In this document: piece after piece, positions 13,015 through 64,000 of the stretch
Position numbering within the stretch: the stretch's first letter is position 1
How the letters are laid out: each line of letters starts with the position of its first letter
Source of the DNA: an uncultured Chloroflexia bacterium
GTDB lineage: Bacteria > Chloroflexota > Limnocylindria > Limnocylindrales > CSP1-4
Length of the DNA: 64,000 nt
Reading direction: 5' to 3'
NCBI GenBank assembly: GCA_963712745.1
Contig: CAVQJC010000007.1
Span: 13,110-77,109 of the forward strand
Translations under genes and position numbers: made by a program
The notes under the pieces: model-generated
The model's database searches: none
The model's input: only the letters and a program-made list of their open reading frames with translations
What the model was told of the DNA's origin: nothing

Positions 13015-13889
13015 GCGCGATGAACAGCGAGCCAGTCCCGGGCCAGGGCCGGATGCCTCGAAAGGCGCTGGTCTACGCGGCCATCTCGATCATCACCATC
13101 GTGTGGGTGCTGCCCACGCTTGGCCTGCTCATCAACTCCTTCCGCACTCCGCAGGCCATCCGCACATCGGGCTGGTGGACGATCCTCGGAGAGGTCCTTG
13201 ATCCCTCGACGTGGACGCTGCAGAACTACCAGACCGTTCTGGACGAGGGCTTCGGCAACGCCTTCCTCAACACGCTGGCAGTGACCGTCCCGGCGGTCGT
13301 CATCCCGCTGACCATCGCGGCCTTCGCAGCCTATGCGTTCGCATGGATGAACTTCCCGGGCCGCAACCTCCTCTTCCTGGTCGTGGTGGGCCTCATGGTC
13401 GTGCCGCTGCAGATGGCGCTGATCCCCATCTTGCGGATGTACACAGCGCTCGACCTGACCGGCACGTTCCCGGCTATCTGGCTGGCACACACCGGATTCG
13501 GCCTGCCGCTGGCGGTGTACCTGCTACGTAACTACATGGGATCCTTGCCCTCGGAGATCATGGAATTGGCCCGGGTCGATGGCGCCAACCACTGGCTCAT
13601 CTTCACCAGGATCATCCTGCCGCTGTCGGTGCCGGTGCTGGCCTCCTTCGCCATCTTCCAGTTCCTGTGGGTCTGGAACGACTACCTGGTGGCCCTGGTC
13701 TTCCTCGGTATCGACCCCGACAAGCGCGTGCTCAACGTCGAGCTGGCCGACCTCGCCGGACGTGGCGAGGGTGCGCTGAACCTGCTACCTGCAGCCGCGT
13801 TCGTGACCATGCTGCTGCCACTGGCGGTCTTCTTCGGCCTGCAGCGCTACTTCGTGCGCGGCCTGACGGCCGGGTCGGTCAAGGGCTAG
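13011..13889 (+). CDS. Sugar ABC transporter permease
   Basis: ELARVDGA, WVWNDYL, QRYFVRGLTAGSVKG. Confidence 0.92.
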   Translation: MSAMNSEPVPGQGRMPRKALVYAAISIITIVWVLPTLGLLINSFRTPQAIRTSGWWTILGEVLDPSTWTLQNYQTVLDEGFGNAFLNTLAVTVPAVVIPLTIAAFAAYAFAWMNFPGRNLLFLVVVGLMVVPLQMALIPILRMYTALDLTGTFPAIWLAHTGFGLPLAVYLLRNYMGSLPSEIMELARVDGANHWLIFTRIILPLSVPVLASFAIFQFLWVWNDYLVALVFLGIDPDKRVLNVELADLAGRGEGALNLLPAAAFVTMLLPLAVFFGLQRYFVRGLTAGSVKG

Positions 13890-14012
13890 GCATCGCGTCT
13901 CGGACAGGGATAGCGCCTCGCGCGGCCGCTGCCTTCGAAGGCTCGTCCGCGCGGGTAGCGCCATCGATCTGTCATCGGCCCCTCGAGACCTCCGGTGTAC
14001 GATGGCGCGACC

Positions 14013-14372
14013 ATGCCTGACCCGACCATCACCAACGACGCCATCGGCCCCACCATCGCAGCCTCCGACGATGCCGCGCCGGCCTTCGACCCGGTGCAGC
14101 GCTCGCGAGAGCTGGCCGTGCTCGACGCCCTCCGCTCCGTAGTCGACCCGGAGATCGGCATGAACGTGGTCGAGCTGGCCCTCATCAAGCAGGTCATCCT
14201 CGGGGACGAGTCGACCGAGATCAAGATGATCCTGACCACGCCCTTCTGTCCGTACGCCGGTTCCATGATCCAGCAGGTCAAGGAGGCAGCCGAGGAAGCG
14301 GAGGGGCATGAGGTCAAGGTCACCCTCCTGGCCGAACGCTGGGATCCTCGCGACGCGGGCCTGACCTGGTAG
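14013..14372 (+). CDS. Metal-sulfur cluster assembly factor (DUF59/SufT-like)
   Basis: LRSVVDPEIGMNVVEL...LTTPFCP motif. Confidence 0.88.
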   Translation: MPDPTITNDAIGPTIAASDDAAPAFDPVQRSRELAVLDALRSVVDPEIGMNVVELALIKQVILGDESTEIKMILTTPFCPYAGSMIQQVKEAAEEAEGHEVKVTLLAERWDPRDAGLTW

Positions 14373-14394
14373 AGACCGCCGCGAGCCCAGTCAC

Positions 14395-15027
14395 ATGAGC
14401 CCCTCGGAAGCCCGCGCTCGGCGCGAGGCCATCGCCGACAGTGCCGTCGCTACGGGCAAGGGCGACGACGGCACCACCGGACTGCTTTACGGGGGCCGAA
14501 TCGCCAAGGACGACGCGCGGGCGGAGGCCTACGGCACCATCGACGAGGCCGTCTCCGCGCTGGGGCTGGCCCGTGCCGAGATCGCCACCATGGCCCGGGC
14601 TGGAGCGCTGGCCGCACCGCTGGCCGAGATGGGACGGACCCTGCTCCACCTCCAGCGCGACCTATTCGTGGCCGGCGCGGAGCTGGCCACGAACCCGGAT
14701 GCCTGGGACCGGCTGCGCGACGGTGAGACCAGGGTCGACGAGGACATGCTCACGGCGCTCGAGAAGCTGCTGCGGAGCACCGAGGCACAGGTCGAGATGC
14801 CGCGGGAGTTCGTGGTGCCCGGCTCGGACCGGCTGTCGGCAGCACTCGAGCTGGCGCGGACCGTGGTGCGCCGGGCGGAGCGCCGGGTCATCGCTCTGGA
14901 CCACGAGCGCCTGGTGCCCGGCGCCTGGCTGATGCCCTACCTCAACCGTCTCGCCGACCTGCTGTGGGTGCTTGCGCGCCTGGCCGAGCAGAACGGCGAG
15001 GGCGACACCACCAGGGTCCGCACCTAG
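14395..15027 (+). CDS. pduO: Cob(I)alamin adenosyltransferase, PduO type
   Basis: TGKGDDGTT, EAYGTIDE, ARTVVRRAERR, YLNRLADLLWVLAR. Confidence 0.9.
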   Translation: MSPSEARARREAIADSAVATGKGDDGTTGLLYGGRIAKDDARAEAYGTIDEAVSALGLARAEIATMARAGALAAPLAEMGRTLLHLQRDLFVAGAELATNPDAWDRLRDGETRVDEDMLTALEKLLRSTEAQVEMPREFVVPGSDRLSAALELARTVVRRAERRVIALDHERLVPGAWLMPYLNRLADLLWVLARLAEQNGEGDTTRVRT

Positions 15028-50179: not shown

Positions 50180-50467
50180 ATCTGTCCCTCCGCGCCCCTG
50201 GGGGCTGCGTTTCGCTCGCGACACGGGACCGGGCTCGCCACTGCTCAGCGTGATCCGGCTCGGCGACCGTCGGTGGATCACGCGTCTTCGCTTCCCGTCT
50301 TGGACTAGGCTCGGATGCTCGCTTCCGAGTCTATCGAGAAGCCATCAAGGATTCGTGACGGACGACTACATCAGAGCGCAGCGGACCGCACTTTGTGGTG
50401 CGTGCGGTCACCAACCCCTCGTGCTGCCCATCGGGCCGTGCCGCTGGCCCTGCCGGCGCTTGCCGTG

Positions 50468-52569: not shown

Positions 52570-53256
52570 CTACCCGATGTGGCCGGTAGGCGGAAGGGCG
52601 CGGCGCACGGCGACGACCTCGATGAGGTGGAAGTGGTGGGGCTCGCCGAGGGCGGTCTCGCCGTCCTCCTCCTTCTCGGTCCAGTGCTCGATCTCGAATC
52701 CGTCGAGGTAGCGGCGCATTACCTCCGGGCTGGGGCAAGTCATCCCGGGTTCGCCCGCGGCGTCGTCCCGGTGGCCAAAGAGCATGCCGCTGAAGCGGCC
52801 GTCGATGCCGATGCCCCCCCGGATGCGCTCCCAGGCGGCGTCGTACTCGTCTGGCGGCAGGAAGGGCAGGATGAGGTTGGCGTTGACCAGGTCACACTGC
52901 GGGATTTCGAACTCGGCCAGGTCTGCAAGCTCCGTCTGCAGGCGGGGCAGGTCGTGCTCGGGAGTGAGGTGCCGCAGCGTGTTGAGGGCCTCGGGCGTCA
53001 TGTCCGTGGCCAGCACGCGCCAACCTCTGCGCAGCAGCTCGCGCGTGTCCCGGCCGGCGCCGCAGCCAAGGTCCACGGCGAAGCGGGGACCGTCCGCTGG
53101 ATGCTCTCCGAAGGCCTCGGCCGCCATCTTCGTCGTCGTCCACGACGGGCGCTCGGCTGTGACCTCGTAGTAGTCGGGCCAGTGCGTTGCGGACGCCCCG
53201 GCGCCGTTCGGGCGGGCCTGGGCCTCGGCGGGCCGGATCGTCGAGTGCTGGGTCAT
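52570..53256 (-). CDS. Class I SAM-dependent methyltransferase
   Basis: VDLGCGAGRD motif I. Confidence 0.88.
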   Translation of the reverse strand: MTQHSTIRPAEAQARPNGAGASATHWPDYYEVTAERPSWTTTKMAAEAFGEHPADGPRFAVDLGCGAGRDTRELLRRGWRVLATDMTPEALNTLRHLTPEHDLPRLQTELADLAEFEIPQCDLVNANLILPFLPPDEYDAAWERIRGGIGIDGRFSGMLFGHRDDAAGEPGMTCPSPEVMRRYLDGFEIEHWTEKEEDGETALGEPHHFHLIEVVAVRRALPPTGHIG

Positions 53257-53343
53257 GGCCGAGCCAGCCTAGCGCTATGCTCGGAAGCAGTGGCGTCGCC
53301 GACCCATGGATCCGACTCGTGGCGCCCGGAAGGAGCCCAATTC

Positions 53344-53973
53344 ATGCGCATTGCCGTGGTCAACGAGAGCAGCGCGGTCGACAAGCACCCCTTCATCATG
53401 TCTGCCCTGGCGGGCCGTGGCCACGACGTCGTCAACGCCGGCATGGCCGAGCGAGGCGAGGACCCGGAGCTGCTGTACATCCACACCGGGCTGATCTCGG
53501 CGCTGCTGCTGGCGGCAGACCGCGTGGACATGGTCATCGGCGGCTGCGGCACCGGGCAGGGCTACATGAACTCGGTGATGCAGTATCCGGGAGTCTCGTG
53601 TGGCCACCTGCTGACCTCGCTCGATGCGTTCCTGTTCGCGCGCATCAACGCGGGCAATGTCGTCTCGCTCGCGCTCAACCAGGGCTGGGGCTGGGCCGGT
53701 GACGAGAACCTGCGCCTGCTGTTCGACCAACTGTTCACCGACGAGCAGGGGTCGGGCTTCCCGCCGCATCGCGAGGAGCCTCAGCGCCAGTCACGTGAGG
53801 GTCTCCAGGTCGTCTCCGGGGCCACGCATCGCACCATGGCCGAGATCGTGGCGCGACTGCCCGACAAGGTCATCGCGCCGGCCATCACCCACCCCGCCGC
53901 GGCCGCGGTGCTGGACATCCCCACCATCGCCGATGTCGAGCTACGCGAGGCGCTGCAGGTGCGCCTGCCATAG
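53344..53973 (+). CDS. RpiB/LacA/LacB family sugar-phosphate isomerase
   Basis: GGCGTGQG, PGVSCG, INAGN, GWGWAG. Confidence 0.85.
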   Translation: MRIAVVNESSAVDKHPFIMSALAGRGHDVVNAGMAERGEDPELLYIHTGLISALLLAADRVDMVIGGCGTGQGYMNSVMQYPGVSCGHLLTSLDAFLFARINAGNVVSLALNQGWGWAGDENLRLLFDQLFTDEQGSGFPPHREEPQRQSREGLQVVSGATHRTMAEIVARLPDKVIAPAITHPAAAAVLDIPTIADVELREALQVRLP

Positions 53974-53984
53974 CGCCTCTGGCC

Positions 53985-54047
53985 GAATCGCCAGGCGTAC
54001 GATGTCTGGTCGTCGTCGCCATGGCGCAGGCAGCCGAGGCGGCGCGA
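53985..54047 (+). repeat. Array repeat R0 (terminal copy, divergent left half)
   Basis: GAATCGCCAggcgtacgatGTCTGGTCGTCGTCGCCATGGCgcaGGCAGCCGAGGCGGCGCGA. Confidence 0.85.
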
Positions 54048-54208
54048 GCAAATCAGCCGGTGGGCACGGCTGGTCGCCGACTCCTAGCTCTCGCCTACTC
54101 CTTGGTCTCGGCCCACGCTCCAGCCGGGTGCGCTTGCGCTGGCGCCGCGTATCTCTTCAACTCGCTCTGGGTTCGCCGTCCATCGAGCCGCCATCGACCG
54201 GTCGGTCA

Positions 54209-55108
54209 TCACTCCTCTGGATGGAGTTGGTAGACGAGGAACGTCTCGGTGAGCGGCAGGGTCGGGGGCTGCTCGAAGATGTCGAAGTGGTCGGCGTCTA
54301 TCTCGGCGTAGACGAACTCCCGGTCGACCTCGGCGAGGGCTGCCGCCAGGTTCCGGGACGCCTGAACGTCGACGTTGGTGTCGCGGGTGCCGTGGATGAT
54401 GAGGATGGGCACGGTCTCCGCATCGACGAGGTAGGCGGGCGAGACCGCACGCCACGCGGCGGGGTCATCCTCGTAGCTGGCGCCCAGCAGGCTCTCGTAG
54501 ACCGCCGTCTGCTCCGGGTACGGGTTGCCGATCGTGAGGTCGACGTCGCCCGAGACGCTGACGACGCAGGTGACGCGGCTCGAGATGCCCGCCATGTCAG
54601 GGTCACTCGTGTCGCGGGCATCGGTCATGCCGACCAGCGACGCGAGGTGGCCACCGGAGGAATGGCCGAGGGCGCAGATCCGGTCGGGGTCGACGCCGTA
54701 GTCCGCCGCGTGAGCGCGGATCCAGCGGACCGCTGCCTGGGCATCCTCGAGTTGTGCCGGCCATGGGTTCGTGCCCGTCGACGGATCGTGGAGGCGGTAG
54801 CCCGCCGCAAAGGCCACGTAGCCAGCCTCGGCCATCTGGCGTGCAGAGTCGAGGACCCACAGCGGATCCCCGATGTCGTATCCGCCGCCGGAGAAGAAGA
54901 CGACGGCGGGCCGTGGCGCGGTCCGAGGCTCTGGCTCGTAGGCATGGATAACCTGCTTTGGGTCTTCGCCGTACTCGAGGGACGTCGTGAGGCTCGGCCA
55001 CGCGCTCTGTTGGTTCGGCTCCTCCGACTGAGCCACGACCGCACTGCCCAGTCCGCTGAGCAGTGCCAAGATGACCGTCACCGACAGGGACAGTCGCAAC
55101 GTCCGCAT
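54209..55108 (-). CDS. Cassette 1: secreted alpha/beta hydrolase (esterase)
   Basis: Signal MRTLRLSLSVTVILALL; GHSSGG nucleophile, HGTRD, DADHF. Confidence 0.9.
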   Translation of the reverse strand: MRTLRLSLSVTVILALLSGLGSAVVAQSEEPNQQSAWPSLTTSLEYGEDPKQVIHAYEPEPRTAPRPAVVFFSGGGYDIGDPLWVLDSARQMAEAGYVAFAAGYRLHDPSTGTNPWPAQLEDAQAAVRWIRAHAADYGVDPDRICALGHSSGGHLASLVGMTDARDTSDPDMAGISSRVTCVVSVSGDVDLTIGNPYPEQTAVYESLLGASYEDDPAAWRAVSPAYLVDAETVPILIIHGTRDTNVDVQASRNLAAALAEVDREFVYAEIDADHFDIFEQPPTLPLTETFLVYQLHPEE

Positions 55109-55249
55109 GACATCCCCCTTTGCTGCGCGGGCCGGTTTCGCCAGTGGCTCGGCGCGGTCCTCGGCGGCCAGGATGTGGGCCGCGCGTCAGAGCCTCCCGC
55201 TACTGGTGATTCTCTCGCGGGCGTCTATCCGCTCCGCAGCCACTATCCG
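55109..55249 (-). promoter_or_regulatory. Conserved cassette leader L1
   Basis: Homologous to five other leaders; ends in GGGGG RBS. Confidence 0.8.
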
Positions 55250-55295
55250 GAATCGCCATGAATAGCGGGTTATGTCTGGTCGTCGCCGCCCTGGC
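55250..55295 (+). repeat. Array repeat R1
   Basis: GAATCGCCATGAATAGCGGGTTATGTCTGGTCGTCGCCGCCCTGGC. Confidence 0.95.
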
Positions 55296-55364
55296 GTCAG
55301 GCTGCTGGGCCGTCCCGGCCCTCGACTGCCGAGCGTCGCAGGCAGCGGAGGTGGCGCGAGGGGT

Positions 55365-55886
55365 CTACTCGGCAGGTAGTCCTGGCATCTCGCCCGAGAC
55401 GATGACGCCGTTCCACGAGTCCAATCCGCGGAAGCCGAACTCCGGATCGGCATAGAGGATGGCCGTGAGGCCGCCGTATCCACCGGCCCCGCTGAGTACG
55501 AGTTGCTCGATATCGATCCCCGGATCTCCGTCGATGAAGACCCTGGTGCCGTTGCCCGACCACGACCCTCCTTCGTTGGCGATCTCCACCCTCGAGGAGA
55601 TCAGGCCGAAGCCGTCGTACGCCCGCTCAGCCATGACGACGGAGCCGTCGCCGGTGAGCCGTGGATCGTCCATCACGAGACCGAAGCACCAGGTCCAGCT
55701 GGCCGTGCCGTCGTCGAGTTCGGTGAAATCCTCCTCCAGCTCGCACGGCACGCTCGCGCCGCCAATCGGACTCATACCCCCGCTCACGACGACGGCTTCA
55801 TCGTCCTGCGCTGCGACACTGACCGCTGAGCCCGCCAGCTGGCCGATGGTGAGGAGCGTGATGATGCCGATCCTGATCGTTCCCAT
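55365..55886 (-). CDS. Cassette 2: secreted hypothetical protein (DPRL/GxYxGL family)
   Basis: Signal peptide ending AAQ; DPRLTG, GSWSG, GAGGYGGL. Confidence 0.8.
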   Translation of the reverse strand: MGTIRIGIITLLTIGQLAGSAVSVAAQDDEAVVVSGGMSPIGGASVPCELEEDFTELDDGTASWTWCFGLVMDDPRLTGDGSVVMAERAYDGFGLISSRVEIANEGGSWSGNGTRVFIDGDPGIDIEQLVLSGAGGYGGLTAILYADPEFGFRGLDSWNGVIVSGEMPGLPAE

Positions 55887-55996
55887 GGTCTCTCCCTCGA
55901 TACTCACGCTGGCGAGTCGATCCCGCCTGTACCAGGTAGACGATTCTCGAGGCGCAGGCGTCCCACGAGCCGTTGCTGCAACGCCGCCCCATGCGA

Positions 55997-56042
55997 GAAT
56001 CGCCATGAATAGCGGGTTTGGTCTGGTCATCGCCGCCATGGC
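55997..56042 (+). repeat. Array repeat R2
   Basis: GAATCGCCATGAATAGCGGGTTTGGTCTGGTCATCGCCGCCATGGC. Confidence 0.95.
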
Positions 56043-56095
56043 CGCGCACGCCACGGGCGCCACCATGGCGACGCCAGCCGAGGCGGCGCGATGGG

Positions 56096-56608
56096 TTAGT
56101 CGGTGGGAAGCGGCAGCGGTGGCGGGTCACCGGCGTAGACGATGCCCTCGACAGTCCCGGGTTCGCCGAAGTCGGCCACGGCGCGACCGACGAAGACGAG
56201 GCCGTCGTATGCATCGGTCCCGCTGTACACGACGTAGCTGTTGGCTCGTTGCTCGGGGTCGTGGGTGCCCGCATAGGCGCCCACCCACGTGCCATCGGGA
56301 CCAGCGATTTCTTGGGTGCCCCAGTAGGTGCACGGCCATTCGCTGAAGCAGTCCTCGTTGTAGACCTTCGTGGCGACACCGCTCAGTCGGGGATCGGACA
56401 TCTCCGAGGTGCACACGAGGCCCATGCCACGGTAGCTCTTCACCTCACCTTCGGTGGTGACCTCAGGGCCTTGTTCGACGATGCAGTCGACATCAGTCCC
56501 GGTCACCCAGATGGCTGCCTCCTCGTCCTGCGCCAGGACCGCTCCGCTCACATCAGCGGCCAGCGCCAAGATGACCGTCACCGCCAGGGACAGTCGCAAC
56601 GTACGCAT
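56096..56608 (-). CDS. Cassette 3: secreted hypothetical protein (DPRL/GxYxGL family)
   Basis: Signal MRTLRLSLAVTVILAL; DPRLSG, GTWVG, GTDAYDGL. Confidence 0.82.
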   Translation of the reverse strand: MRTLRLSLAVTVILALAADVSGAVLAQDEEAAIWVTGTDVDCIVEQGPEVTTEGEVKSYRGMGLVCTSEMSDPRLSGVATKVYNEDCFSEWPCTYWGTQEIAGPDGTWVGAYAGTHDPEQRANSYVVYSGTDAYDGLVFVGRAVADFGEPGTVEGIVYAGDPPPLPLPTD

Positions 56609-56738
56609 GTCATTCCCCCTCACGCGCGGGTCGGGTTCGCCAGTGGCTCAGCGCGGCCCCGGCGGCCATAGTCAGGGACCTGCGCGTCACAGCCTCCCAC
56701 TACGGACGATTCTCTCGCGGGCGTCCATCGCCTCGCTG
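56609..56738 (-). promoter_or_regulatory. Conserved cassette leader L3
   Basis: + strand GGGTTCGCCAGTGGCTC...GCCTCCCACTAC...GATTCTCTCGCGGGCGTCC. Confidence 0.8.
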
Positions 56739-56785
56739 GTATCGCCATGAAGAGCGGGTCTTGATCTGGTCGTCGCTGCCATGGC
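56739..56785 (+). repeat. Array repeat R3
   Basis: GTATCGCCATGAAGAGCGGGTCTTGATCTGGTCGTCGCTGCCATGGC. Confidence 0.92.
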
Positions 56786-56812
56786 GCAGACAGCCGAGGT
56801 GGCGCGATGGGG

Positions 56813-57928
56813 TTACTCGGCGGGCGGCTCCACGGGGTCGGGCATCGGCGCCACCAGCTCGCTGGGCACGATCATACCCCACGAACTCATGCTGAGGCGG
56901 TCGGCGGACTCGTGAAGGAAGAGGGTCAGGCCGTCATAGCCGGCCTCGCCCGTCATCTTAGTCATGCTCGCGATCCCCCCGACCTGGTCGGAGCTAGCCG
57001 CGATGATCTGCGATGAGCCCGACCAGGCGCCGTCGTCATTGACGAGCCGTGCCGTGATCGACCAGTTCTGCACTTGGGTGTGTTCGGATCCGAACCCGGT
57101 CCGGTTCTGCCACGTCGTCATCAGCCCGGATGCTCGCGGGTCGGTCGCTGTGATCCGGTCCACCTGCACCACCCCGCGCGACTCGGTCACCGAACCGTCC
57201 GCGCTCTCGTTGTCGGTGCCCCAGTCCGGCTCTTCGGCCTGCTCGGACGTGAAGACGAAGGCCGCCGGTGCCATCGGGTCCGCCGGTCCCTCAGCGGACG
57301 AGGACGCGATGGCCTCGGGATCGGGTGCCATCTGCATCAGGAACCCTTCTCCGGGCACGGCCTCAGCCGGCTCGGGGAAACCAGGAACCTCACCCTCGAA
57401 GATCCAGCCGTCGTACGCGACATCCCAGGGTCCGTGGGCATCCACGTCGGGCGTACCGCGCAGGAACGCGTGCAGGCCGTCGTAGGCACCCTCCCCCACC
57501 AGTTGGTAGTAGCTGTCGCGATCGTCAGGCGACTCGAAGGCCCGACCCGTTCCGCGCCAGATCCCTTCGTCATCGACGAGCAGGTGGCTCGTCTCGAGCG
57601 TCATCACGCCGGCCTCGGGGTCGTCGCCGTAGATGGCGAGGTTGAGCCGGATCCAGTGCTCGCTCGGGAGGCGTGGGTCGCTCCACTCCACGCGCTGTCC
57701 GAAGGTGTGGCCCTGTTCGCGCAGGACGCCCGCCTCGTCACTGGACGTGACGGTGTCTTCCGCTTGCTGCTCGACGTACTCGCCCGTCTCGGTGGACAGC
57801 TCTAGGACCGTGCCGGTCACATAGGCGGGCGTGGATGGTTCCTCGCTCTGGGCGGCCGCCTCCATCGCTGTGCCGACGAGCATCGCCGCGATGACCGGCC
57901 CCACCAGGAATGCTGGTGCCGTACGCAT
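56813..57928 (-). CDS. Cassette 4: secreted protein with two DPRL/GxYxGL domains
   Basis: Signal peptide; SDPRL..GIWRG..GEGAYDGL and TDPRA..GAWSG..GEAGYDGL. Confidence 0.82.
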   Translation of the reverse strand: MRTAPAFLVGPVIAAMLVGTAMEAAAQSEEPSTPAYVTGTVLELSTETGEYVEQQAEDTVTSSDEAGVLREQGHTFGQRVEWSDPRLPSEHWIRLNLAIYGDDPEAGVMTLETSHLLVDDEGIWRGTGRAFESPDDRDSYYQLVGEGAYDGLHAFLRGTPDVDAHGPWDVAYDGWIFEGEVPGFPEPAEAVPGEGFLMQMAPDPEAIASSSAEGPADPMAPAAFVFTSEQAEEPDWGTDNESADGSVTESRGVVQVDRITATDPRASGLMTTWQNRTGFGSEHTQVQNWSITARLVNDDGAWSGSSQIIAASSDQVGGIASMTKMTGEAGYDGLTLFLHESADRLSMSSWGMIVPSELVAPMPDPVEPPAE

Positions 57929-58058
57929 GACATCCCCTTTGCATGCGCGGGTCGGGTTCGCCAGTGGCTCGGCGCGGTCCAGGCGGCCATTGCTGGGGCC
58001 GCGTCTCATCGCCTCCCGCTACGAACGATTCTCTCGCGGACGTCCAACAGCGATCCCA
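57929..58058 (-). promoter_or_regulatory. Conserved cassette leader L4
   Basis: Homologous to L1 and L3. Confidence 0.8.
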
Positions 58059-58104
58059 GAATCGCCATGAATAGCGGGTCATGTCTGGTCGTCGCCGCCA
58101 TGGC
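58059..58104 (+). repeat. Array repeat R4
   Basis: GAATCGCCATGAATAGCGGGTCATGTCTGGTCGTCGCCGCCATGGC. Confidence 0.95.
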
Positions 58105-58184
58105 ACGCGCATACGGCCAGGCCGACCTGCGACCAACCGGGGCGTGAGGCGCCAAGGGCGTCGCGGCGATGTTCGGCAACCGTC

Positions 58185-58379
58185 CTACGACGCTGGGACC
58201 TTCTCGATCACGAGAAGGAAGTCCACGCGGGGCATCCACAGGAACCCTATGGTGACGTTCGGGACGATGCTCACGACCTCTCCCTCCAGGTCGTTGAGGA
58301 AGCGCTCGAGGTTCGCCTCATCCTTCGTCATCGAGACATCGATGCGATGCACTCGGTACCGGTGGCCGGTGGCTGCCAT
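58185..58379 (-). CDS. Cassette 5: small hypothetical protein (64 aa)
   Basis: MAATGHRYRVHRIDV...LEGEVVSIVPNV...VDFLLVIEK; GAGGGGG RBS. Confidence 0.75.
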   Translation of the reverse strand: MAATGHRYRVHRIDVSMTKDEANLERFLNDLEGEVVSIVPNVTIGFLWMPRVDFLLVIEKVPAS

Positions 58380-58524
58380 GTGGATGCCCCCTCGTATGCG
58401 CGGGCTGGGTTCGCCAGTGGTTCGACGCGGCCCAAGGCGGCCATCGTCGACGGACCGCGCGTCAGCGCCTCCCGCTGCGTCGATTCTCTCGCGGGCGTCC
58501 ATGGGCTCGCGATGGCGCTCGGCG
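58380..58524 (-). promoter_or_regulatory. Conserved cassette leader L5
   Basis: Homologous to L1, L3 and L4. Confidence 0.8.
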
Positions 58525-58570
58525 AGATCGCCATGTATAGAGGGTCATGGCTGGTCGTCGCTGCCATGGT
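58525..58570 (+). repeat. Array repeat R5
   Basis: AGATCGCCATGTATAGAGGGTCATGGCTGGTCGTCGCTGCCATGGT. Confidence 0.9.
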
Positions 58571-58698
58571 GATGCACACGGGTCGGCGTCCAGCCCATGA
58601 CCTGAGGAACGGCCCGCCGTCTGAACGGCCCGACGTCTGACCGGCGCTGGACGATCGCAGCATCCAACGAGCGGGCGGCGTCCAGATGGAGGTGACTC

Positions 58699-59142
58699 TT
58701 GGCCGCCAGCGGCCGCATCACGGTTCACCTCGATCGCCCAGCCGAGGATGTCTTCGACTACGTCAGCAACGTCGAGAACAACCCACGATGGCGCACCGCG
58801 GTCATCGAGACGAGATGGCTCGATCCGGGACCCAACAGGCCCGGGCGTCGCGGCGAGCAGACATCGAGGATCCTCGGTCGCCGGCACACCGTCACGGCGG
58901 AGGTCGTCGACTGGGACCCGCCTCGACACGTCAGCTGGGCGACGACGGCTGGCGGCGCGGATGTCCGCACCCACTGTCGCGTCGATGCGGACGGCGACAG
59001 GTGCACCCTCACGCTCGAGTCGGAAGGGCAGTTCACCGGCGTGTGGCGACTCTTGACCCCGGTCGCGGCGGCGATGCTGCGCCGGCAGTCGATAGCTGAC
59101 ATCGAGCGCCTCCGGGCGGTCCTGGGGGACCGCCCAGGCTGA
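58699..59142 (+). CDS. Cassette 6: SRPBCC family protein
   Basis: DRPAEDVFDYVSNVENNPRW; GGAGGTGA RBS before TTG. Confidence 0.85.
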   Translation: MAASGRITVHLDRPAEDVFDYVSNVENNPRWRTAVIETRWLDPGPNRPGRRGEQTSRILGRRHTVTAEVVDWDPPRHVSWATTAGGADVRTHCRVDADGDRCTLTLESEGQFTGVWRLLTPVAAAMLRRQSIADIERLRAVLGDRPG

Positions 59143-59191
59143 CCCTGGGCCCGGCCATCTGCCGCCTCTGACGTAGCGATGGCGCTCTGCG

Positions 59192-59236
59192 GAACCGCCA
59201 TGGATGGCGGGTGGACCTGGTCGTCGCCGCCATGGC
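59192..59236 (+). repeat. Array repeat R6
   Basis: GAACCGCCATGGATGGCGGGTGGACCTGGTCGTCGCCGCCATGGC. Confidence 0.9.
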
Positions 59237-59319
59237 TGTGGGTTACAGCGGTCGGCGTCCGCTCCAGGGCGAACCTCGGGAGTCCCGCCGCCACAGTCGA
59301 CAAGACCACGCGGACCCTG

Positions 59320-59892
59320 TCACCTCTCCGCCGCTTCCGGCGAGGTTGGTTTCTCGAACCACACCAATCGATAGCGCATGACCTTGGGCTCGTCCTCCGC
59401 TTCGATGATGTCCTCGAACAGTTCATCGATGCGATGTTGCAGCTGCTGCTGGACGGTCTCGGGTTCCGCCTGGACCGTCTCTGCCTCGACGAGGTGCGCC
59501 GCCTTTACGCGCTCGATCATCGCGTTCCCGAGCGCCAGAGCGACGTCGCGGGCGGTCGTCGCGTCGTCGTCGCGAACCTCGATCCGCACCGTCAATGCAT
59601 CAGCGCGACTCGTCGCCGAGATCCGCTCGAGCAGACTCTCGGGGCGTTCGTCGAGGCCGAGCTTCTCGATGACCCGGGCAGCGACGGGCCGGGACCGGGC
59701 CAGCTGCGCGTAGCGCTCGGCACGCGCCTCTGCCTCGCGGAAGTCGGCGACGCTCGGAGCGGGCCCTGGGTCGACGCGCAGCAACGCCGTAGCCTCGTGG
59801 CCCAGCTGGGCGCGCGGCCCGCATGTGAGCACCATCGCAGCCAGGAGGGCCACGGGGGCCCCGGCGGCAGCGAGCCTGTGCGGTACGGACAT
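59320..59892 (-). CDS. Cassette 7: Wzz/YveK-like periplasmic-domain protein
   Basis: ATALLRV...YAQLARSRPVAARVIEKLGL...IEVRDDD..ARDVA resembles a chain-length regulator domain; lacks the C-terminal TM. Confidence 0.6.
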   Translation of the reverse strand: MSVPHRLAAAGAPVALLAAMVLTCGPRAQLGHEATALLRVDPGPAPSVADFREAEARAERYAQLARSRPVAARVIEKLGLDERPESLLERISATSRADALTVRIEVRDDDATTARDVALALGNAMIERVKAAHLVEAETVQAEPETVQQQLQHRIDELFEDIIEAEDEPKVMRYRLVWFEKPTSPEAAER

Positions 59893-60046
59893 CGGCTCCC
59901 CTTGGTGGCAGCATGCGGATACGCGGCTGCCTTCATGCTACGCCGCGGCTACGGGCACGGCGGCAGGCGTGGAGCATGCACCCGTTGTGCTCTTGGACGG
60001 TGACCGCGATGGGGCCCGGCTGGAACAGGCCAGCCTTGACACAGAC

Positions 60047-60092
60047 GAATCGCCATGCATAGCGGGTGATGTCTGGTCGTCGCCGCCATGGT
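60047..60092 (+). repeat. Array repeat R7
   Basis: GAATCGCCATGCATAGCGGGTGATGTCTGGTCGTCGCCGCCATGGT. Confidence 0.95.
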
Positions 60093-60118
60093 GCAGGCAG
60101 CCGAGAAGCGCGATCGGG

Positions 60119-60991
60119 TCAGTCGGCAGGCGTGGCCTCAGTGGGCCCATCGACATGCGTCAGCGTGGCGCTCAGCATGATCGCCAGCTCGTCCGAATCG
60201 TTTCGGATCACATGGACCGTGTCGTCCGCGAAGGATTCCGACGTGAGCTGGTCGGCGTCGGGCGCAATGAACCTGACCGAGTTGGTCAGCGCCGCGTCGA
60301 TCTCGGATGGGGCAGCGAAACCGCTCTCCAAGCGACCTGCTTCGAGCACCAGGAGGCGCAGCAACCCGGCCTCGTCAGACCCAAGCACGAGCTGGCCGCC
60401 GGGGTCGAACGTGAGTCGCTCGAACGTGACCGCGACCGGTGTCGCGAACAGGAGATCCACGGTCTCGGGTGGCAGCACGTTGAGGTCGAGGAGTCGCCAG
60501 TCCATGCCGGTGGGCAGGACCGGTGGCTCCGCGGGGTCATCACTGTCGCCGACCGACAGGGCATACGACACGAACGTCTCGGGCCCCTCGTTCGTGAAGC
60601 TCCTCCCGGCCCCACCGTTGTAGAAGAGCACGAGATCCCCGGCGTCCGCGCTGGCAGTCGTCCCGGCGGGAAGGTCCTCGGTCGCCCCGTCCGCTCGCCA
60701 GATCACCGCCCGGTCATTGTCCGTCCACGTGATCGAGCCGCGCTCGACGTACTCCAGGCTGGCCCATTCATGGGGCTGGGCCGAGCCGACTTCGCCGGTC
60801 ACGCCCGGCTCGATGCTGGTCCGAGCAATCCCGAGACGGACGGCGTCCTCGGGGATGGCCTCGCCAGGGATGACGCCGTGGTCGGCCAAGACCTTGACGC
60901 TGGCGCGGGGCACCTCTTCCTGTGCCAGCGCCGCGCTGCCCAGCAGCACCAGGATGACCGTCCCTGCCAGGGACAAGCGCAACGTACGCAT
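60119..60991 (-). CDS. Cassette 8: secreted tandem cupin-like protein
   Basis: Signal MRTLRLSLAGTVILVLL; IEPG..EYVERGSI..AGDLVLF..FTNEG and FDPG..LEAGRL..IRNDSDE. Confidence 0.75.
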   Translation of the reverse strand: MRTLRLSLAGTVILVLLGSAALAQEEVPRASVKVLADHGVIPGEAIPEDAVRLGIARTSIEPGVTGEVGSAQPHEWASLEYVERGSITWTDNDRAVIWRADGATEDLPAGTTASADAGDLVLFYNGGAGRSFTNEGPETFVSYALSVGDSDDPAEPPVLPTGMDWRLLDLNVLPPETVDLLFATPVAVTFERLTFDPGGQLVLGSDEAGLLRLLVLEAGRLESGFAAPSEIDAALTNSVRFIAPDADQLTSESFADDTVHVIRNDSDELAIMLSATLTHVDGPTEATPAD

Positions 60992-61130
60992 GCTGTTCCC
61001 CCTCGCTCACGCGGGCTGGGCCCGCCAGTCGCTCGGCACGGTCCAGGCGGCCACTGCTGGGACCGCGCATCATCGCCTCCCGCTACATGTGATTCTCGCG
61101 GCCGTCTATCGGCTCCGCAGCCACTCTCCA
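60992..61130 (-). promoter_or_regulatory. Conserved cassette leader L8
   Basis: Homologous leader; shares the GTCTATC.GCTCCGCAGCCACT segment with L1. Confidence 0.8.
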
Positions 61131-61176
61131 GAATCGCCATGTAGAGAGGGTTTGGTCTGGTCGTCGCCGCCATGGC
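61131..61176 (+). repeat. Array repeat R8
   Basis: GAATCGCCATGTAGAGAGGGTTTGGTCTGGTCGTCGCCGCCATGGC. Confidence 0.93.
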
Positions 61177-61230
61177 TAGGCACACCACAGGCAGCCGAGG
61201 CGGCGCGATGGATTACTCGGTGAGATCGCT

Positions 61231-62125
61231 TCAGGCACCCTTCTCCACCGGGTTCGAGGATCACTCGTCCACTCCTCCAGCGCTCCGTCGTACATGGCCA
61301 CGTCCTCGAAGCCCATGAGGTGCAGGACCAGCGCCGCGAAGGCGCCGTAGTAGCCGCCACCGCAGTAGGTGATGGTCGACTGCGCGGATCGAGCCCGGTC
61401 TCCTCCAGCATGACGGCGAGGTCCCCGGCCCCCTTGACCACGCCCGTGACGTCGAGCAGCTCGGGTGCCGGGAGGCTCACCGCACTGGGGATGTGCTCGT
61501 AGTCGTAGCTGCCGGAGGGTAGGGCGTCCACGATGTTGACGGCAGGATCGTCGATGGCGGCCCTGACCTCGTCCATCGCCACATACCACTCCGGTCGCAC
61601 CTCGGCCGTGAAGACGGCCGGCCCGATGACCGGCGCCTCCGTCTCGAGTGGCAGGCCCTCGGCCTCCCAGGCATCGATGCCGCCATCGAGGAGCTTGGCG
61701 TCCTCGTGGCCGTAGTACCGCAGCGCCCACCACACACGGGCTCCCCACAGCCCACCCTCATCGTCGTAGATGACAACGGTCGTGTCGTCCCCGATGCCCT
61801 TCTCGCCCATGAGCTCGGCGAACGGCTCGGCGTCCATGATGTCGGAGGGGCAACAGAGCTCATCGAAGATGTCGACGAGGACGGCTCCGGGGATGTGCCC
61901 TTGCGAGTAGAGGATCGGCCCATCCGCGCGAGCATCCACGATCCGCACGGACGGATCATCCAGGTGCTCAGCCAGCCGATCCGAGTCCACCAGGACCTCG
62001 GGATGGACGTATTCCACTGGGAGCTCGAAGGCGCCGCTCGACGAAGCCTCCTGCCCGACGGCCGGTACGCCCCCAAGCGCCAGGCACAGCACGACGGCCG
62101 CTCCCGCGGTCCAAAGCCTACGCAT
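61231..62125 (-). CDS. Cassette 9: secreted double-domain sulfurtransferase (rhodanese), frameshifted near 61385 and 61258
   Basis: GHIPGAV, RVWWALRYYGH, LDGG, HIPSA; ITYCGGG and YDGALEEW in the shifted frame. Confidence 0.85.
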
Positions 62126-62271
62126 CGCGATACCCCCTCTCCTGCATGCGGGCCGGGTTCGCCAGTGGCTCTGCACGGTCCAGGCGGCCATGATCAGCAG
62201 GCCGTGCTTCGGAGCCGCCCGCTACACCGATTCTCCCGCTGGCGTCCATCAAGTCCGCCTGAGCAGCGCAG
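62126..62271 (-). promoter_or_regulatory. Conserved cassette leader L9
   Basis: + strand GGGTTCGCCAGTGGCTC...CAGGCGGCCA...CCCGCTAC..GATTCTC. Confidence 0.8.
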
Positions 62272-62317
62272 GAATCGCCATGAATAGCGGGTTTGGCCTG
62301 GTCGCCGCCGCCATGGC
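62272..62317 (+). repeat. Array repeat R9
   Basis: GAATCGCCATGAATAGCGGGTTTGGCCTGGTCGCCGCCGCCATGGC. Confidence 0.93.
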
Positions 62318-62485
62318 TATCGCGGAGGCGGCCGAGGCGGCGCGGCGCAACCTATCCCCCGCTGGCGTCGGGGTGTAGACTGCCGCGCCTTGGGGGCCGT
62401 CACACGAGGAAGGTCAGCTCGCCACCATCTACTCGCGAGCCACATTCGGACCGAGCGGTCCGGCCAGGGTCCAGGGAGGTTCTCC

Positions 62486-62903
62486 ATGTCTGACAACAAG
62501 GCCACGATGCTTCGCCTCTACGACGAGGTCTTCAGCCAGGGCGATTTCGACCTCGGCGACGAGCTCCTGGCGGACGACTTCGTCGAGCACGAGGAGCTTC
62601 CGCCCGGGATCCGCCGGGCAAGGCGGCGCCGCAGTACTCATGACCATGATGCGTGCCGCCTTCCCCGACTTCCACGCGGCGGCCGAGGAGCTGCTCGAGG
62701 ACGGGGACAAGGTGATCGCCCGGGCACGCTTCTCCGGCACCGACCAAGGCGAGTTCATGGGCATCGCCGCGACCGGCAAGAGGTTCGACATCGCCGTCAT
62801 CGACATCATCGAGTTCCGCGATGGCAAGGCGATCGCCCACTGGGGGGTCATGGACATGGCCGGGATGATGGAGCAGCTCGGCATCGGCGGGCCGCCCGCG
62901 TAG
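62486..62903 (+). CDS. Cassette 10: SnoaL-like ester cyclase (frameshift ~62610-62640)
   Basis: LYDEVFSQGD..DELLADDFVEH, then AAFPD..EDGDKV..GEFMGIAATGK..FRDGK..HW..D. Confidence 0.85.
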
Positions 62904-62946
62904 GCCTCCCCACTGGGCCGCCCAATCGCCGGCGAGCGCTTCCCCA

Positions 62947-62995
62947 GGATCGCCACCGTGAATGATGGGTTGGGTCTGGTCGTCGCCGCCATGGC
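62947..62995 (+). repeat. Array repeat R10
   Basis: GGATCGCCACCGTGAATGATGGGTTGGGTCTGGTCGTCGCCGCCATGGC. Confidence 0.88.
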
Positions 62996-63274
62996 CACAC
63001 ACGCTGCCGGTCCGTCCGGCCCTGACTCCGCTGACCCGGGTGCGGAGGATGGAGGGCGTGATGCGCATGTGAGTCGGACACTGTCAGGGTTGTTGGTCCT
63101 GGGTGCAGGCGACCTGGGGGCGACATAGCCGGGATCTGCGGCCGGAAACCCAGTGAGGGCCAGAAGATGTCGCAGTGATTCCGATTCGCTCATCCCTGGA
63201 CCGTGGGTCCGGAAAGTGGGCGCTCCGGTGACCTTCAGCCCTGTGTCGATCTCGCCCTGCCGGCCGACCTTGTC

Positions 63275-63756
63275 ATGATGACAAGCCGCCTCAGTCGCAA
63301 GGAGAGCGTCGGCCTCTGGCTGTACCGCAACCTCGACAAGCGCTTCAGTCGGCCTCAGCGTGGCTCTCTTTCGTCGCACCAGGGTGGGTTGACCGAGCGC
63401 GTGAACGTCGATGCCCTCGTCCTGACGACGGTCGGACGGAAGAGCGGCCGCCGCCGCAGGTCCTGCTGCAGTACTTCCGTGATGGTGACGACATGCTGCT
63501 GGTGGCGGCCGACGGTGAAGCAGTTCGCCATCCCGGCTGGTTCGACAACCTCATGGCGGTACGAGACGCCAGGGGCTGAGATGCGTGGCCAGGCCGGGTT
63601 GGTGCATGCGACGAAGCTGTACCAAACGGAAGCCGAGGACGCTGGCCAGCGTTTCCTCGCCGCTCTCCTGACTACGAGCGATACCTTCGCGCTACCGAGC
63701 GCAGTATCCCGATCGTCCGCCTGCACCCGGCATATGCCGCGACCTCAGATGTCTGA
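63275..63756 (+). pseudogene. Cassette 11: deazaflavin (F420)-dependent nitroreductase family, multiply frameshifted
   Basis: LVLTTVGRKSG, DGDDMLLVAADG..HPGWFDNL and RSIPIVRL lie in different frames. Confidence 0.75.
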
Positions 63757-63862
63757 TCGTGACGCGGCGATGCTGGTCGAAGCTCGCCGAGCCCTCGAGC
63801 TGAGCCGGACGAAGCGTCCGCCGCCATGTTGCCGCCCGTCATGCCGAGGTGGGGGTTACCCG

Positions 63863-63908
63863 GTTACGCCATGAATAGCGGGTGCGGTCTGGTCGTCGCC
63901 GCCACAGC
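63863..63908 (+). repeat. Array repeat R11
   Basis: GTTACGCCATGAATAGCGGGTGCGGTCTGGTCGTCGCCGCCACAGC. Confidence 0.92.
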
Positions 63909-64000
63909 CACGCACGCCGCTGGGCCGTCTGTGCCCTGAGCCTGGCGCGAGCGGGGGTGACGGATCGGGGTGGAGGATCGCTGATGCCGCACTCGGCCAA

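Follow-up and report, generated by a model that had tools for sequence, protein, structure and literature searches.

The window is a 64,000-nucleotide stretch of DNA from an uncultured Chloroflexia bacterium (positions 13110-77109 of contig C7), and its end is occupied by an array of single genes separated by a conserved site of about 46 bp. Twelve direct copies of the site span window positions 53988-63908 and delimit eleven intervals with eleven gene units, eight on the minus strand and three on the plus strand. No site copy is present in the first 54 kb of the window, and the contig ends 92 bases past the last copy. An earlier note on this DNA, made from the letters alone, had reported the direct copies, the single gene in each interval with these strands, the lack of the repeat in the first 54 kb and the extension of the array to the window edge, and all of these observations are borne out. 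At least three gene-cassette arrays lie on the chromosome of this genome, and the region forms the proximal part of one of them; such arrays may represent an undescribed bacterial route for collecting genes. The genome, termed G000, comprises 4.2 Mb in 20 contigs and is 84.6% complete. Labels with G denote genomes, those with C are contigs of G000, and those with L are stretches from relatives (L010 is from G014 and L040 from G060).

The first site of the array (53988..54025, plus strand) begins 15 nt past the stop codon of the rpiB-like gene. It consists of a left half, TCGCCAGGCGTACGATG, the core TCTGGT and the right half shared by all sites, and forms an imperfect palindrome; we call it I-type. 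The internal sites, also on the plus strand, are composed of a different left half (L) followed by the right half (R), as in site 2 (55250..55295; GAATCGCCATGAATAGCGGGTnnnG then TCTGGTCGTCGCCGCCCTGGC). Sites 3 (55997..56042, with a fold no better than shuffles, z -0.4 and -0.8), 4 (56740..56785), 5 (58059..58104, an exact match to the 44-nt search pattern), 6 (58525..58570, with three mismatches in the right half), 7 (59192..59236), 8 (60047..60092), 9 (61131..61176) and 10 (62272..62317) are of the same L+R kind. Site 11 (62947..62995) has a degenerate left half with seven mismatches and an exact right half, and site 12 (63863..63908) is the last copy before the contig end at 64000. A repeat search limited to window 53000-64000 yields families of 6-10 direct copies. 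A search of the window with the 21-nt right half TCTGGTCGTCGCCGCCATGGC, allowing at most three mismatches, finds starts at 54005, 55275, 56022, 56765, 58084, 58550, 59216, 60072, 61156, 62297, 62975 and 63888, which fit the twelve starts in the earlier note once a left half of 23-25 nt is added. That note had taken the twelve for copies of one repeat, which describes the eleven L+R sites, whereas the first copy is a distinct variant with another left half.

The same right half yields 60 matches at up to four mismatches in the whole 4.2-Mb genome. All 36 matches with three or fewer mismatches lie in three arrays, at C7 67114-76997 (12 matches), C10 37596-52694 (9 matches) and C17 157968-175906 (14 matches), or at one site in a mini-array (C1:113276); each of the remaining 24 has exactly four mismatches. 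A reversed-pattern control gave no matches in any genome searched, which excludes a chance origin of the site matches. As good matches occur only in arrays, the repeat does not show the genome-wide dispersal of a repetitive extragenic palindrome (REP), the pattern that the earlier note had named beforehand as contradicting its proposal.

The cassettes were delineated by using gene calls from a GC3-based open reading frame (ORF) picker, not a gene finder, and apparent frameshifts may be assembly errors. Protein families were assigned with Pfam, and riboswitches with the Rfam covariance models RF03169 and RF03170. Cassette 1 (54209..55108, minus strand) encodes a secreted esterase of 299 aa (BD-FAE/alpha-beta hydrolase; Pfam, 1.4e-41), and a 100% identical protein is encoded in the C17 array. 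Its leader is a c-di-GMP-II-GAG variant riboswitch aptamer (55122..55206, minus strand; 65.5 bits vs a gathering score of 40). Cassette 2 (55365..55886, minus strand) encodes 173 aa with a signal-peptide-like N-terminus (by eye); it belongs to no Pfam family and matches a gene of the C17 array at 98% identity over 180 aa. Cassettes 3 (56096..56608; 170 aa, N-terminus MRTLRLSL...) and 4 (56813..57928; 371 aa), both on the minus strand and without a Pfam family, are led by aptamers at 56620..56706 (minus strand; 53.9 bits) and 57940..58025 (minus strand; GCG variant, 64.5 bits). Cassette 5 (58185..58379, minus strand; 64 aa, no Pfam family) has a riboswitch-like leader (58395..58481, minus strand) that scores 46.6 bits, just under the gathering score of 47.9.

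Cassette 6 (58699..59142, plus strand) encodes an SRPBCC protein of 147 aa (Polyketide_cyc2; Pfam, 1.4e-21), and cassette 7 (59320..59892, minus strand) a protein of 190 aa without a Pfam family. Cassette 8 (60119..60991, minus strand) encodes 290 aa with the MRTLRLSL signal and a weak Cupin_2 match (E 0.015), and has a 76% identical paralogue in the C17 array; its aptamer is at 61005..61089 (minus strand; 61.5 bits). Cassette 9 (61106..62125, minus strand) encodes a secreted rhodanese-domain protein (Pfam, 1.1e-24) with an aptamer at 62143..62228 (minus strand; 56.5 bits). Cassette 10 (62486..62902, plus strand) holds a SnoaL-like gene split over two frames by a frameshift or an assembly error, and the open frame of cassette 11 (63203..63874, plus strand), which matches F420H2-dependent quinone reductase only in part and at 15 bits, is probably what remains of a decayed gene. 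The earlier note's labels are thus supported by Pfam for the esterase, SRPBCC and rhodanese genes; its Wzz-like label has no match, and its cupin, SnoaL and F420 labels correspond to the marginal match, the split gene and the 15-bit score just described. Six of the window cassettes have no convincing Pfam family, the function of the cargo is unrelated between cassettes, and the signal-peptide-like N-terminus MRTLRLSL is common to several cassette proteins (by eye). In 15 arrays or loci, 64 of 96 intervals hold exactly one predicted gene.

Six minus-strand cassettes of the window are therefore led by c-di-GMP-II-GAG/GCG variant aptamers, five above the gathering score and one just below it, a feature that was absent from the earlier note; the other 5 of 11 lack a riboswitch. 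Matches to RF03169 and RF03170 fall on array leaders and not on the 46-bp site, and the Rfam scan gave no convincing matches apart from riboswitches. The genome contains 47 riboswitch matches, 13 inside arrays and 34 outside them and without the site. Of the 47, 32 exceed the gathering score, and clusters are found on C5 (76-112 kb), C10 (168-175 kb), C15, C20, C2 and C4; one copy lies in the window outside the array (50217-50304, minus strand). The array riboswitches looked at precede secreted-looking proteins that share the N-terminus MRTLRLSL. The c-di-GMP-II-variant regulon of G000 is very large for an orphan riboswitch, and we know of no ligand for the GAG/GCG variants.

Two types of block occur to the right of R. 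The first type, GGGCCGTCCGGCCC-TTGACC-N16/17-GAGGAT, is found some 30 bases ahead of the start codons of plus-strand genes and resembles a sigma-70-type promoter. The second, GCAGGCAGCCGAGGCGGCGCGA, abuts the stop codon of minus-strand genes. The GGGCCGTCCGGCCC block, the GCAGGCAGCCGAGGCGGCGCGA block and the CCGCGAGAGAATC block found in front of riboswitches each recur outside arrays without the site, so that the 46-bp site is the only array-specific element. Because cassettes carry their own expression blocks, namely a sigma-70-like promoter or a promoter together with a c-di-GMP-II-variant riboswitch, and in many cases the common signal peptide, they are self-sufficient expression units. The GGGCCGTCCGGCCC TTGACC N16-17 GAGGAT module is reused before many secreted-protein genes in and out of arrays (C2:104324, C8:4555 and C17:17952), and the conserved 3' block GCAGGCAGCCGAGGCGGCGCGA comes after genes ending in ...PAE; the recurrence of the promoter module and the 3' block suggests a modular shuffling of expression signals. 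A simple consensus scan found no promoter-like sites, and three terminator-like sites against 2.1 expected, none of them at repeats; the scan did not call the GGGCCGTCCGGCCC block. The possibility that the site itself is the promoter block of riboswitch genes was rejected, since outside arrays such genes keep the CCGCGAGAGAATC block without the site.

All sites are co-oriented within each array (111 sites, 15 arrays or loci); the one opposite match has four mismatches and lies inside a gene. The gene junctions that hold sites are of every kind, with 29 on the plus strand (++), 27 on the minus strand (--), 19 convergent and 19 divergent. Internal sites at convergent junctions, with no adjoining promoter (n=15), have a median of 3 mismatches in 40 positions, compared with 2-5 at other junctions. 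The 46-bp site is not a transcription signal, because sites occur at all four junction types, equally conserved and in constant orientation. A small ORF running from an ATG in L to a TGA in the class-A extension was also rejected, since the variable triplet of several copies puts a TGA in frame (by eye).

When 103 distinct copies are aligned, taken from G000 and from 14 loci in relatives, the conserved core covers 24 bases to the left of a fixed point and 21 bases to its right, gaATCGCCATGaATAGCGGGtnnnG then TCTGGTCGTCGCCGCCATGGC. The copies comprise 75 of L-type, 14 of I-type and 14 too degenerate to class. In the I-type, the left half CGCCAGGCGTACGAyG is followed by TCTGGT and then CGTCGCCGCC, making an imperfect palindrome of about 35 bp whose arms end ...CGACG and CGTCG... 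around TCTGGT. Internal sites have the same core and right arm (TCTGGT CGTCGCCGCCATGGC) and a different left arm (ATCGCCATGAATAGCGGGTnnnG). As single-stranded DNA, I+R folds far better than shuffled sequences (z -3.85 and -3.32; 0 of 200 shuffles as stable), whereas L+R folds no better than shuffles (z -0.4 to -1.5).

The I-type variant occupies the flank-side end in 8 of 8 arrays, and the switch between the two types falls exactly before TCTGG. These eight arrays (C7, C10 and C17 in G000, and one each in G021, G005, G022, G014 and G013) were found by using the internal-site pattern, which is independent of the I-type. The first site of the C10 array is degenerate, with three mismatches to the 29-nt I-type pattern, and the second site of the C17 array is the sole internal I-type copy in G000. 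Array starts adjoin the downstream side of a conserved housekeeping gene, namely the rpiB-like gene, the hisA region or the ornithine carbamoyltransferase (OTC) gene. Two metagenome-assembled genomes (MAGs) contain a solo palindrome, which keeps just 13 bases of R and lacks a cassette, upstream of an M20 peptidase gene (L011 near 5700 and L021 near 1724), a candidate unoccupied site. The two cassette ends share a sub-terminal inverted CATGGCG (by eye).

The mini-array on C1 (113059-113312) begins with about 2.5 tandem repeats of a 22-nt unit made of TCTGG and the left half of the first site. These are followed by the right half, by a promoter block fused to a 3' block, as in an emptied cassette, and by a degenerate L+R site, and there is an IS110 gene at a distance of 3.5 kb. 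In three metagenome contigs (L059, L062 and L068), an array begins right at the stop codon of a membrane-protein gene, TGA then TCGCCAGG. What follows the G000 orthologue of that gene (C20:287200-287700) is instead a degenerate inverted site copy and one riboswitch-led gene.

The I-type pattern is found in 15 of 49 genomes of the genus, with 1-5 copies in each; these genomes are MAGs, 58-95% complete, and their kinship makes them non-independent, so that statistics across them are indicative only. Of 24 other species sampled in the genus, 7 have the internal-site pattern (44 nt, 41 bases specified), compared with none of 16 from a sister family. An exact I-type 23-mer, sought in one genome for each of 185,579 species, returned 12 stretches, all from Chloroflexota MAGs labelled as uncultured Chloroflexia, Candidatus Limnocylindrales or Chloroflexota bacterium. 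Among 400 other genomes of the class, two single matches with one mismatch each were found. Similar arrays are present in about 15 of the 49 species of the genus and hardly anywhere beyond it. Array bearers appear as one sub-clade by the identities of DUF4139 orthologues. Array loci that recur across species are hisA, OTC, the methyladenine-glycosylase/MarR neighbourhood of the window, and M20 peptidase; the same loci in different species make the arrays look old and vertically inherited, with changing content. Ten metagenome contigs carry the I-type pattern; all are short and are 68-87% identical to G000. In G014, a heliorhodopsin gene (PF18761, 8.1e-75; L010:4082-5149) is located a few kilobases past the distal array end, beside an IS21-type istA/istB pair.

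At shared chromosomal loci, cassette content varies from one species to another, which supports the earlier note's interpretation. At hisA, the only two cassettes common to G000 and G021 (77% and 73% protein identity) keep their order and are distal, at 9.4 and 13.6 kb from the start in one array vs 18.1 and 23.3 kb in the other. At OTC, a GYD-domain unit that is 94% identical between species is the last in G000, 17.6 kb from the start, and is the second unit in L022 and L019. The gene after the GYD unit in these two stretches (L019:2446-5277 and L022:5382-8213; 95% identical) encodes a 944-aa protein with an adenylate/guanylate cyclase domain, an NB-ARC/AAA_16 STAND module and TPR repeats, and is absent from the OTC locus of G000. 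In the array-less G060 and G008, OTC and DUF4139 are about 450 bp apart with no site, compared with an array of about 18 kb between them in G000. In the array-less species the intergenic DNA is unrelated, so the comparison shows insertion but no pre-existing target sequence. The OTC-DUF4139 intergenic region of G060 (L040, about 1030-1400) contains tandem GGGCTGCTGGCACGC-type repeats and longer GGCACACCGGGCGTGCCA units.

Sites accumulate mismatches as their rank from the I end rises (pooled Spearman 0.33, n=94; a value as high as the one observed in 2 of 5000 within-array permutations), with a positive trend in 6 of 9 arrays, and the two most distal genes of the window are decayed. Cassettes shared between species have 50-94% protein identity. 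Within G000, the C17 array contains second copies of the first two window cassettes (99% and 98.4% identical in DNA), separated by other material, and this near identity indicates recent movement or copying. The site is better conserved across species than coding DNA: the same 41 specified bases occur with zero mismatches in G000, G005, G014, G021 and G022, and the hisA DNA of G000, G021 and G005 is 75-79% identical. In one cassette, the gene has been lost between the promoter block and the next 3' block.

We give about an even chance to the reading in which conservative site-specific recombination within TCTGGT builds and reshuffles the arrays, with entry preferred at the palindromic first site. 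The sites would then be substrates of a conservative site-specific recombinase, with strand exchange within TCTGGT. New modules would enter mainly at the palindromic first site and displace older ones outward, and any two direct sites could delete or exchange the intervening DNA. The enzyme would act in trans, and might be a housekeeping recombinase, as Xer is with dif modules, or a member of a novel family. The palindromic first site, the decay with distance and the distal-only synteny fit entry at the I end, as in the one-end growth of integrons. The same features and the constant orientation support the earlier note's notion of an undescribed gene-capture platform. The anatomy of the arrays, their distribution, the orientation and conservation of sites, the polarity and the turnover between species are observed; mobility by recombination, with its crossover point, direction of growth and enzyme, is the part that we infer. 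A more specific proposal, to which we attach somewhat less than an even chance, is that the arrays are an integrase-independent analogue of the integron in a soil and sediment lineage of Chloroflexota, in which self-expressing modules would be stacked by TCTGGT exchange at several bare palindromic attachment platforms. Just as tentatively, such an analogue might be catalysed by a recombinase from a family not yet recognised or by a housekeeping enzyme put to new use, and the arrays are perhaps a second, independently evolved capture system.

Several observations speak against recombination at the sites. Not every interval is a single-gene cassette, since 32 of 96 hold other than exactly one predicted gene. 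Polarity is not universal, the trend being negative in 3 of 9 arrays. Some ends of duplicated segments are off-site, for example inside a riboswitch; such breakpoints indicate that homologous recombination and ordinary deletions also shape the arrays. No excised circle and no strain-level gain or loss of a cassette was seen in public sequencing runs or metagenome contigs. Twenty listed runs contained part of the stretch, each at most 27% of its words. Four of them gave only short contigs of 90-99% likeness, in which joints had sides under 45 letters and fell mostly between repeated leaders, making them uninformative on excision or order, and the metagenome contigs are too divergent (68-87%) for comparison at the strain level.

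The missing enzyme is a further difficulty. The earlier note had expected a recombinase just outside the window, and no recombinase was detected by Pfam in or beside arrays (81 + 115 + 66 ORFs of arrays and flanks, and the first 53 kb of the window); in particular, no tyrosine, serine, IS110 or HUH enzyme lies beside the examined arrays, apart from the IS110-family copies described below. No recombinase family tracks the arrays across the 49 genomes. G000 has four PF00589 matches, of which two are XerC/XerD-like, one (C12) occurs in 1 of the 49 genomes, G000 itself, and one (C17) is partial. It has no integron integrase, the best TIGR02249 match scoring 84.9 bits vs a 265-bit cut-off and being XerC/XerD-like. 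One serine recombinase match, one weak match of the same kind and seven IS110-family matches were found in it, and no Y1 HUH transposase or PF01797 match was detected in this 84.6% complete assembly. Serine recombinases occur in 24 of the 49 genomes and IS110 in 32, G000 included; among array bearers, a serine recombinase was not detected in G014, G055, G056, G049 and G051, nor IS110 in G048 and G053. Only two tyrosine recombinases, probably XerC and XerD, are found in the array-bearing G014, G048, G049 and G009. Because these MAGs are incomplete (58-90%), the results do not prove the absence of enzymes. The G000 dif candidate, a single match in the genome (C10:83915-83942), reads ACTTCCGATAA TGCAAG TTATGTAACAT. 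The array site shares no arm or spacer with it (by eye), which counts against the preferred reading; the dif site itself is a usable Xer reference for the lineage.

Since no recombinase lies beside the arrays or tracks them, it is worth asking whether one is needed. The site might instead be a conserved cis element bound by, for example, a nucleoid, insulator or regulatory protein, and the arrays accessory-secretome islands shaped by homologous recombination, duplication and deletion. Such an explanation dispenses with the missing enzyme; the repeated leaders and 3' blocks offer ample homology, some duplication breakpoints lie within them, and genes of the same types also form clusters that lack the site. 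Moreover, the palindromic first site stands just past stop codons, in the position of a terminator hairpin. However, a regulatory element should vary with transcription context, and this site is equally conserved at all junctions in one orientation; it also lies upstream of the promoters, so that it would not be transcribed with either class of cassette. A generic terminator would not be restricted to 1-5 array-start copies per genome, and homologous recombination predicts neither the special first site in 8 of 8 arrays, nor decay with distance, nor distal-only synteny. We therefore regard the cis element as unlikely, though it is the alternative that fares best.

The IS110 genes near some arrays raise a different possibility, that the cassettes are non-autonomous transposable units, with R as the left end and L as the right, moved in trans, for example by an IS110/IS1111-type guide-RNA recombinase. 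Insertion beside an existing end would then generate tandem arrays. IS110/IS1111 enzymes insert in a site- and orientation-specific manner, and the IS1111 group has subterminal inverted repeats (PMC11187229), to which the inverted CATGGCG shared by cassette ends (by eye) may be compared. IS110 is common in the genus (32 of 49 genomes), and its genes lie in or beside arrays in G022, G013 and, as fragments, in C10 of G000. In two species, IS110-family elements with a DEDD transposase (PF01548 + PF02371) are inserted at the same point of the left half, between GAATAG and CGGGT, facing against the array direction (L009:13270-14705 and L011 about 13700-15010), so the L half is recognised precisely. 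These elements in the left halves of L009 and L011 are where IS110/IS1111 membership was found; the cassettes encode no transposase. The ends of the array IS110 elements are unlike the L or R halves (by eye), and for this reason their guide RNA would not be expected to recognise cassette ends. Furthermore, G048 and G053 have array sites and no detected IS110, and there is no complete IS110 with intact L and R sites on either side, as expected of an autonomous master copy. Mobilisation of the cassettes as transposable units thus seems quite improbable.

It is very improbable that the arrays are fossils, built by a dedicated recombinase that was later lost, a history proposed for many attC clusters without an integrase, so that nothing moves today: the lack of a recombinase, the old-looking exchange between species (50-94% protein identity) and the finding that half of those attC-site clusters that have no integron-integrase (CALINs) are in genomes without IntI (PMC4889954) would suit such a history, but unused non-coding sites should drift, and these are far better conserved than hisA, a conservation that makes the fossil reading a poor fit to the missing enzyme, and two G000 cassettes are 98-100% identical between C7 and C17.

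Integrons are the textbook device for collecting and reshuffling single genes. To our knowledge, all known integrons depend on IntI and attC. If the preferred reading, recombination within TCTGGT, is correct, gene-cassette capture would have arisen more than once, and research and genome engineering would gain a new site, possibly along with a new recombinase. The arrays would also help to explain the diversification of secreted proteins in an abundant, uncultured soil lineage, and they link a large orphan c-di-GMP-II-variant riboswitch family to a secretome with fast turnover. The idea is directly testable, because the L|R junction is a defined sequence with which to seek excised cassettes in metagenomes. 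No published description of the 46-bp repeat was found in the excerpts available from the literature on integrons and Chloroflexi, Limnocylindria, IS1111 and attC, dif modules, and riboswitches, which is no proof that it is unpublished.

Among known systems, REPs and bacterial interspersed mosaic elements (BIMEs) resemble the site in being short, conserved, intergenic repeats that IS110/IS1111 elements can target, as has been described for REP-type repeats (PMC11187229). This identification was rejected because all 36 good site matches fall within arrays, a significant hairpin is lacking in the internal site, and no Y1/RAYT transposase was detected. A riboswitch regulon is similar in that six window cassettes are riboswitch-led and similar gene clusters occur elsewhere in the genome. 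In contrast, the 46-bp site is separate from the riboswitch unit, and 34 of 47 riboswitch matches lie outside arrays.

The ssrA-specific islands of Dehalococcoides are an example of site-specific accretion of accessory DNA in Chloroflexota, to which the present arrays can be likened. Accessory DNA accumulates there at one chromosomal site and accounts for much of the diversity among strains; the islands are about 12 kb, many have their own module of integration genes, and the tmRNA gene is the target (PMC3146451). The arrays described here differ in having units with a median of 1.1 kb, no integration genes and no RNA gene as a target.

The sites of plasmid dif (pdif) modules alternate in orientation. 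All array sites, by contrast, are direct; the arrays are also chromosomal and polar, have a special palindromic first site, and use a site unlike the dif of G000. Identity with dif modules was rejected, since no arm or spacer is shared with the host dif (by eye). The likeness to the pdif modules of Acinetobacter plasmids (XerC/XerD) is in small modules bounded by short recombination sites without a dedicated recombinase, in shuffling that is deduced by comparison, and in insertion sequences that target the sites (PMC6449649, PMC13141974, PMC10132070).

The closest parallels are with sedentary chromosomal integrons and CALINs. As in the present arrays, mostly single-gene units of unrelated function lie between direct, conserved sites that are very similar within and between arrays, the first site is distinct, growth appears to proceed from one end with older, decaying units farther away, and insertion sequences target the site. 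CALINs likewise lack a nearby integrase (PMC4889954). IS1111 elements target integron attC sites (PMC11187229), and the IS110 elements in the array left half parallel this targeting. An attC reading of the site was rejected: GTTRRRY is present at the junction in 1 of 12 window sites, RYYYAAC upstream in 1 of 12 and both in none, as the earlier note had observed in denying the repeats consistent ends of this kind, and the internal site has no significant hairpin. An integron in the strict sense was also rejected, since IntI is missing, the site has neither attC cores nor a hairpin, the cassettes bring their own promoters and their genes face either way. Integron cassettes are mostly promoterless, in one orientation and driven from Pc, whereas the cassettes here carry their own promoters or riboswitches in either orientation. 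The crossover would lie at the centre of a palindrome-like core rather than at the outer end of a folded strand, and a genome has several arrays, which occupy several conserved loci.

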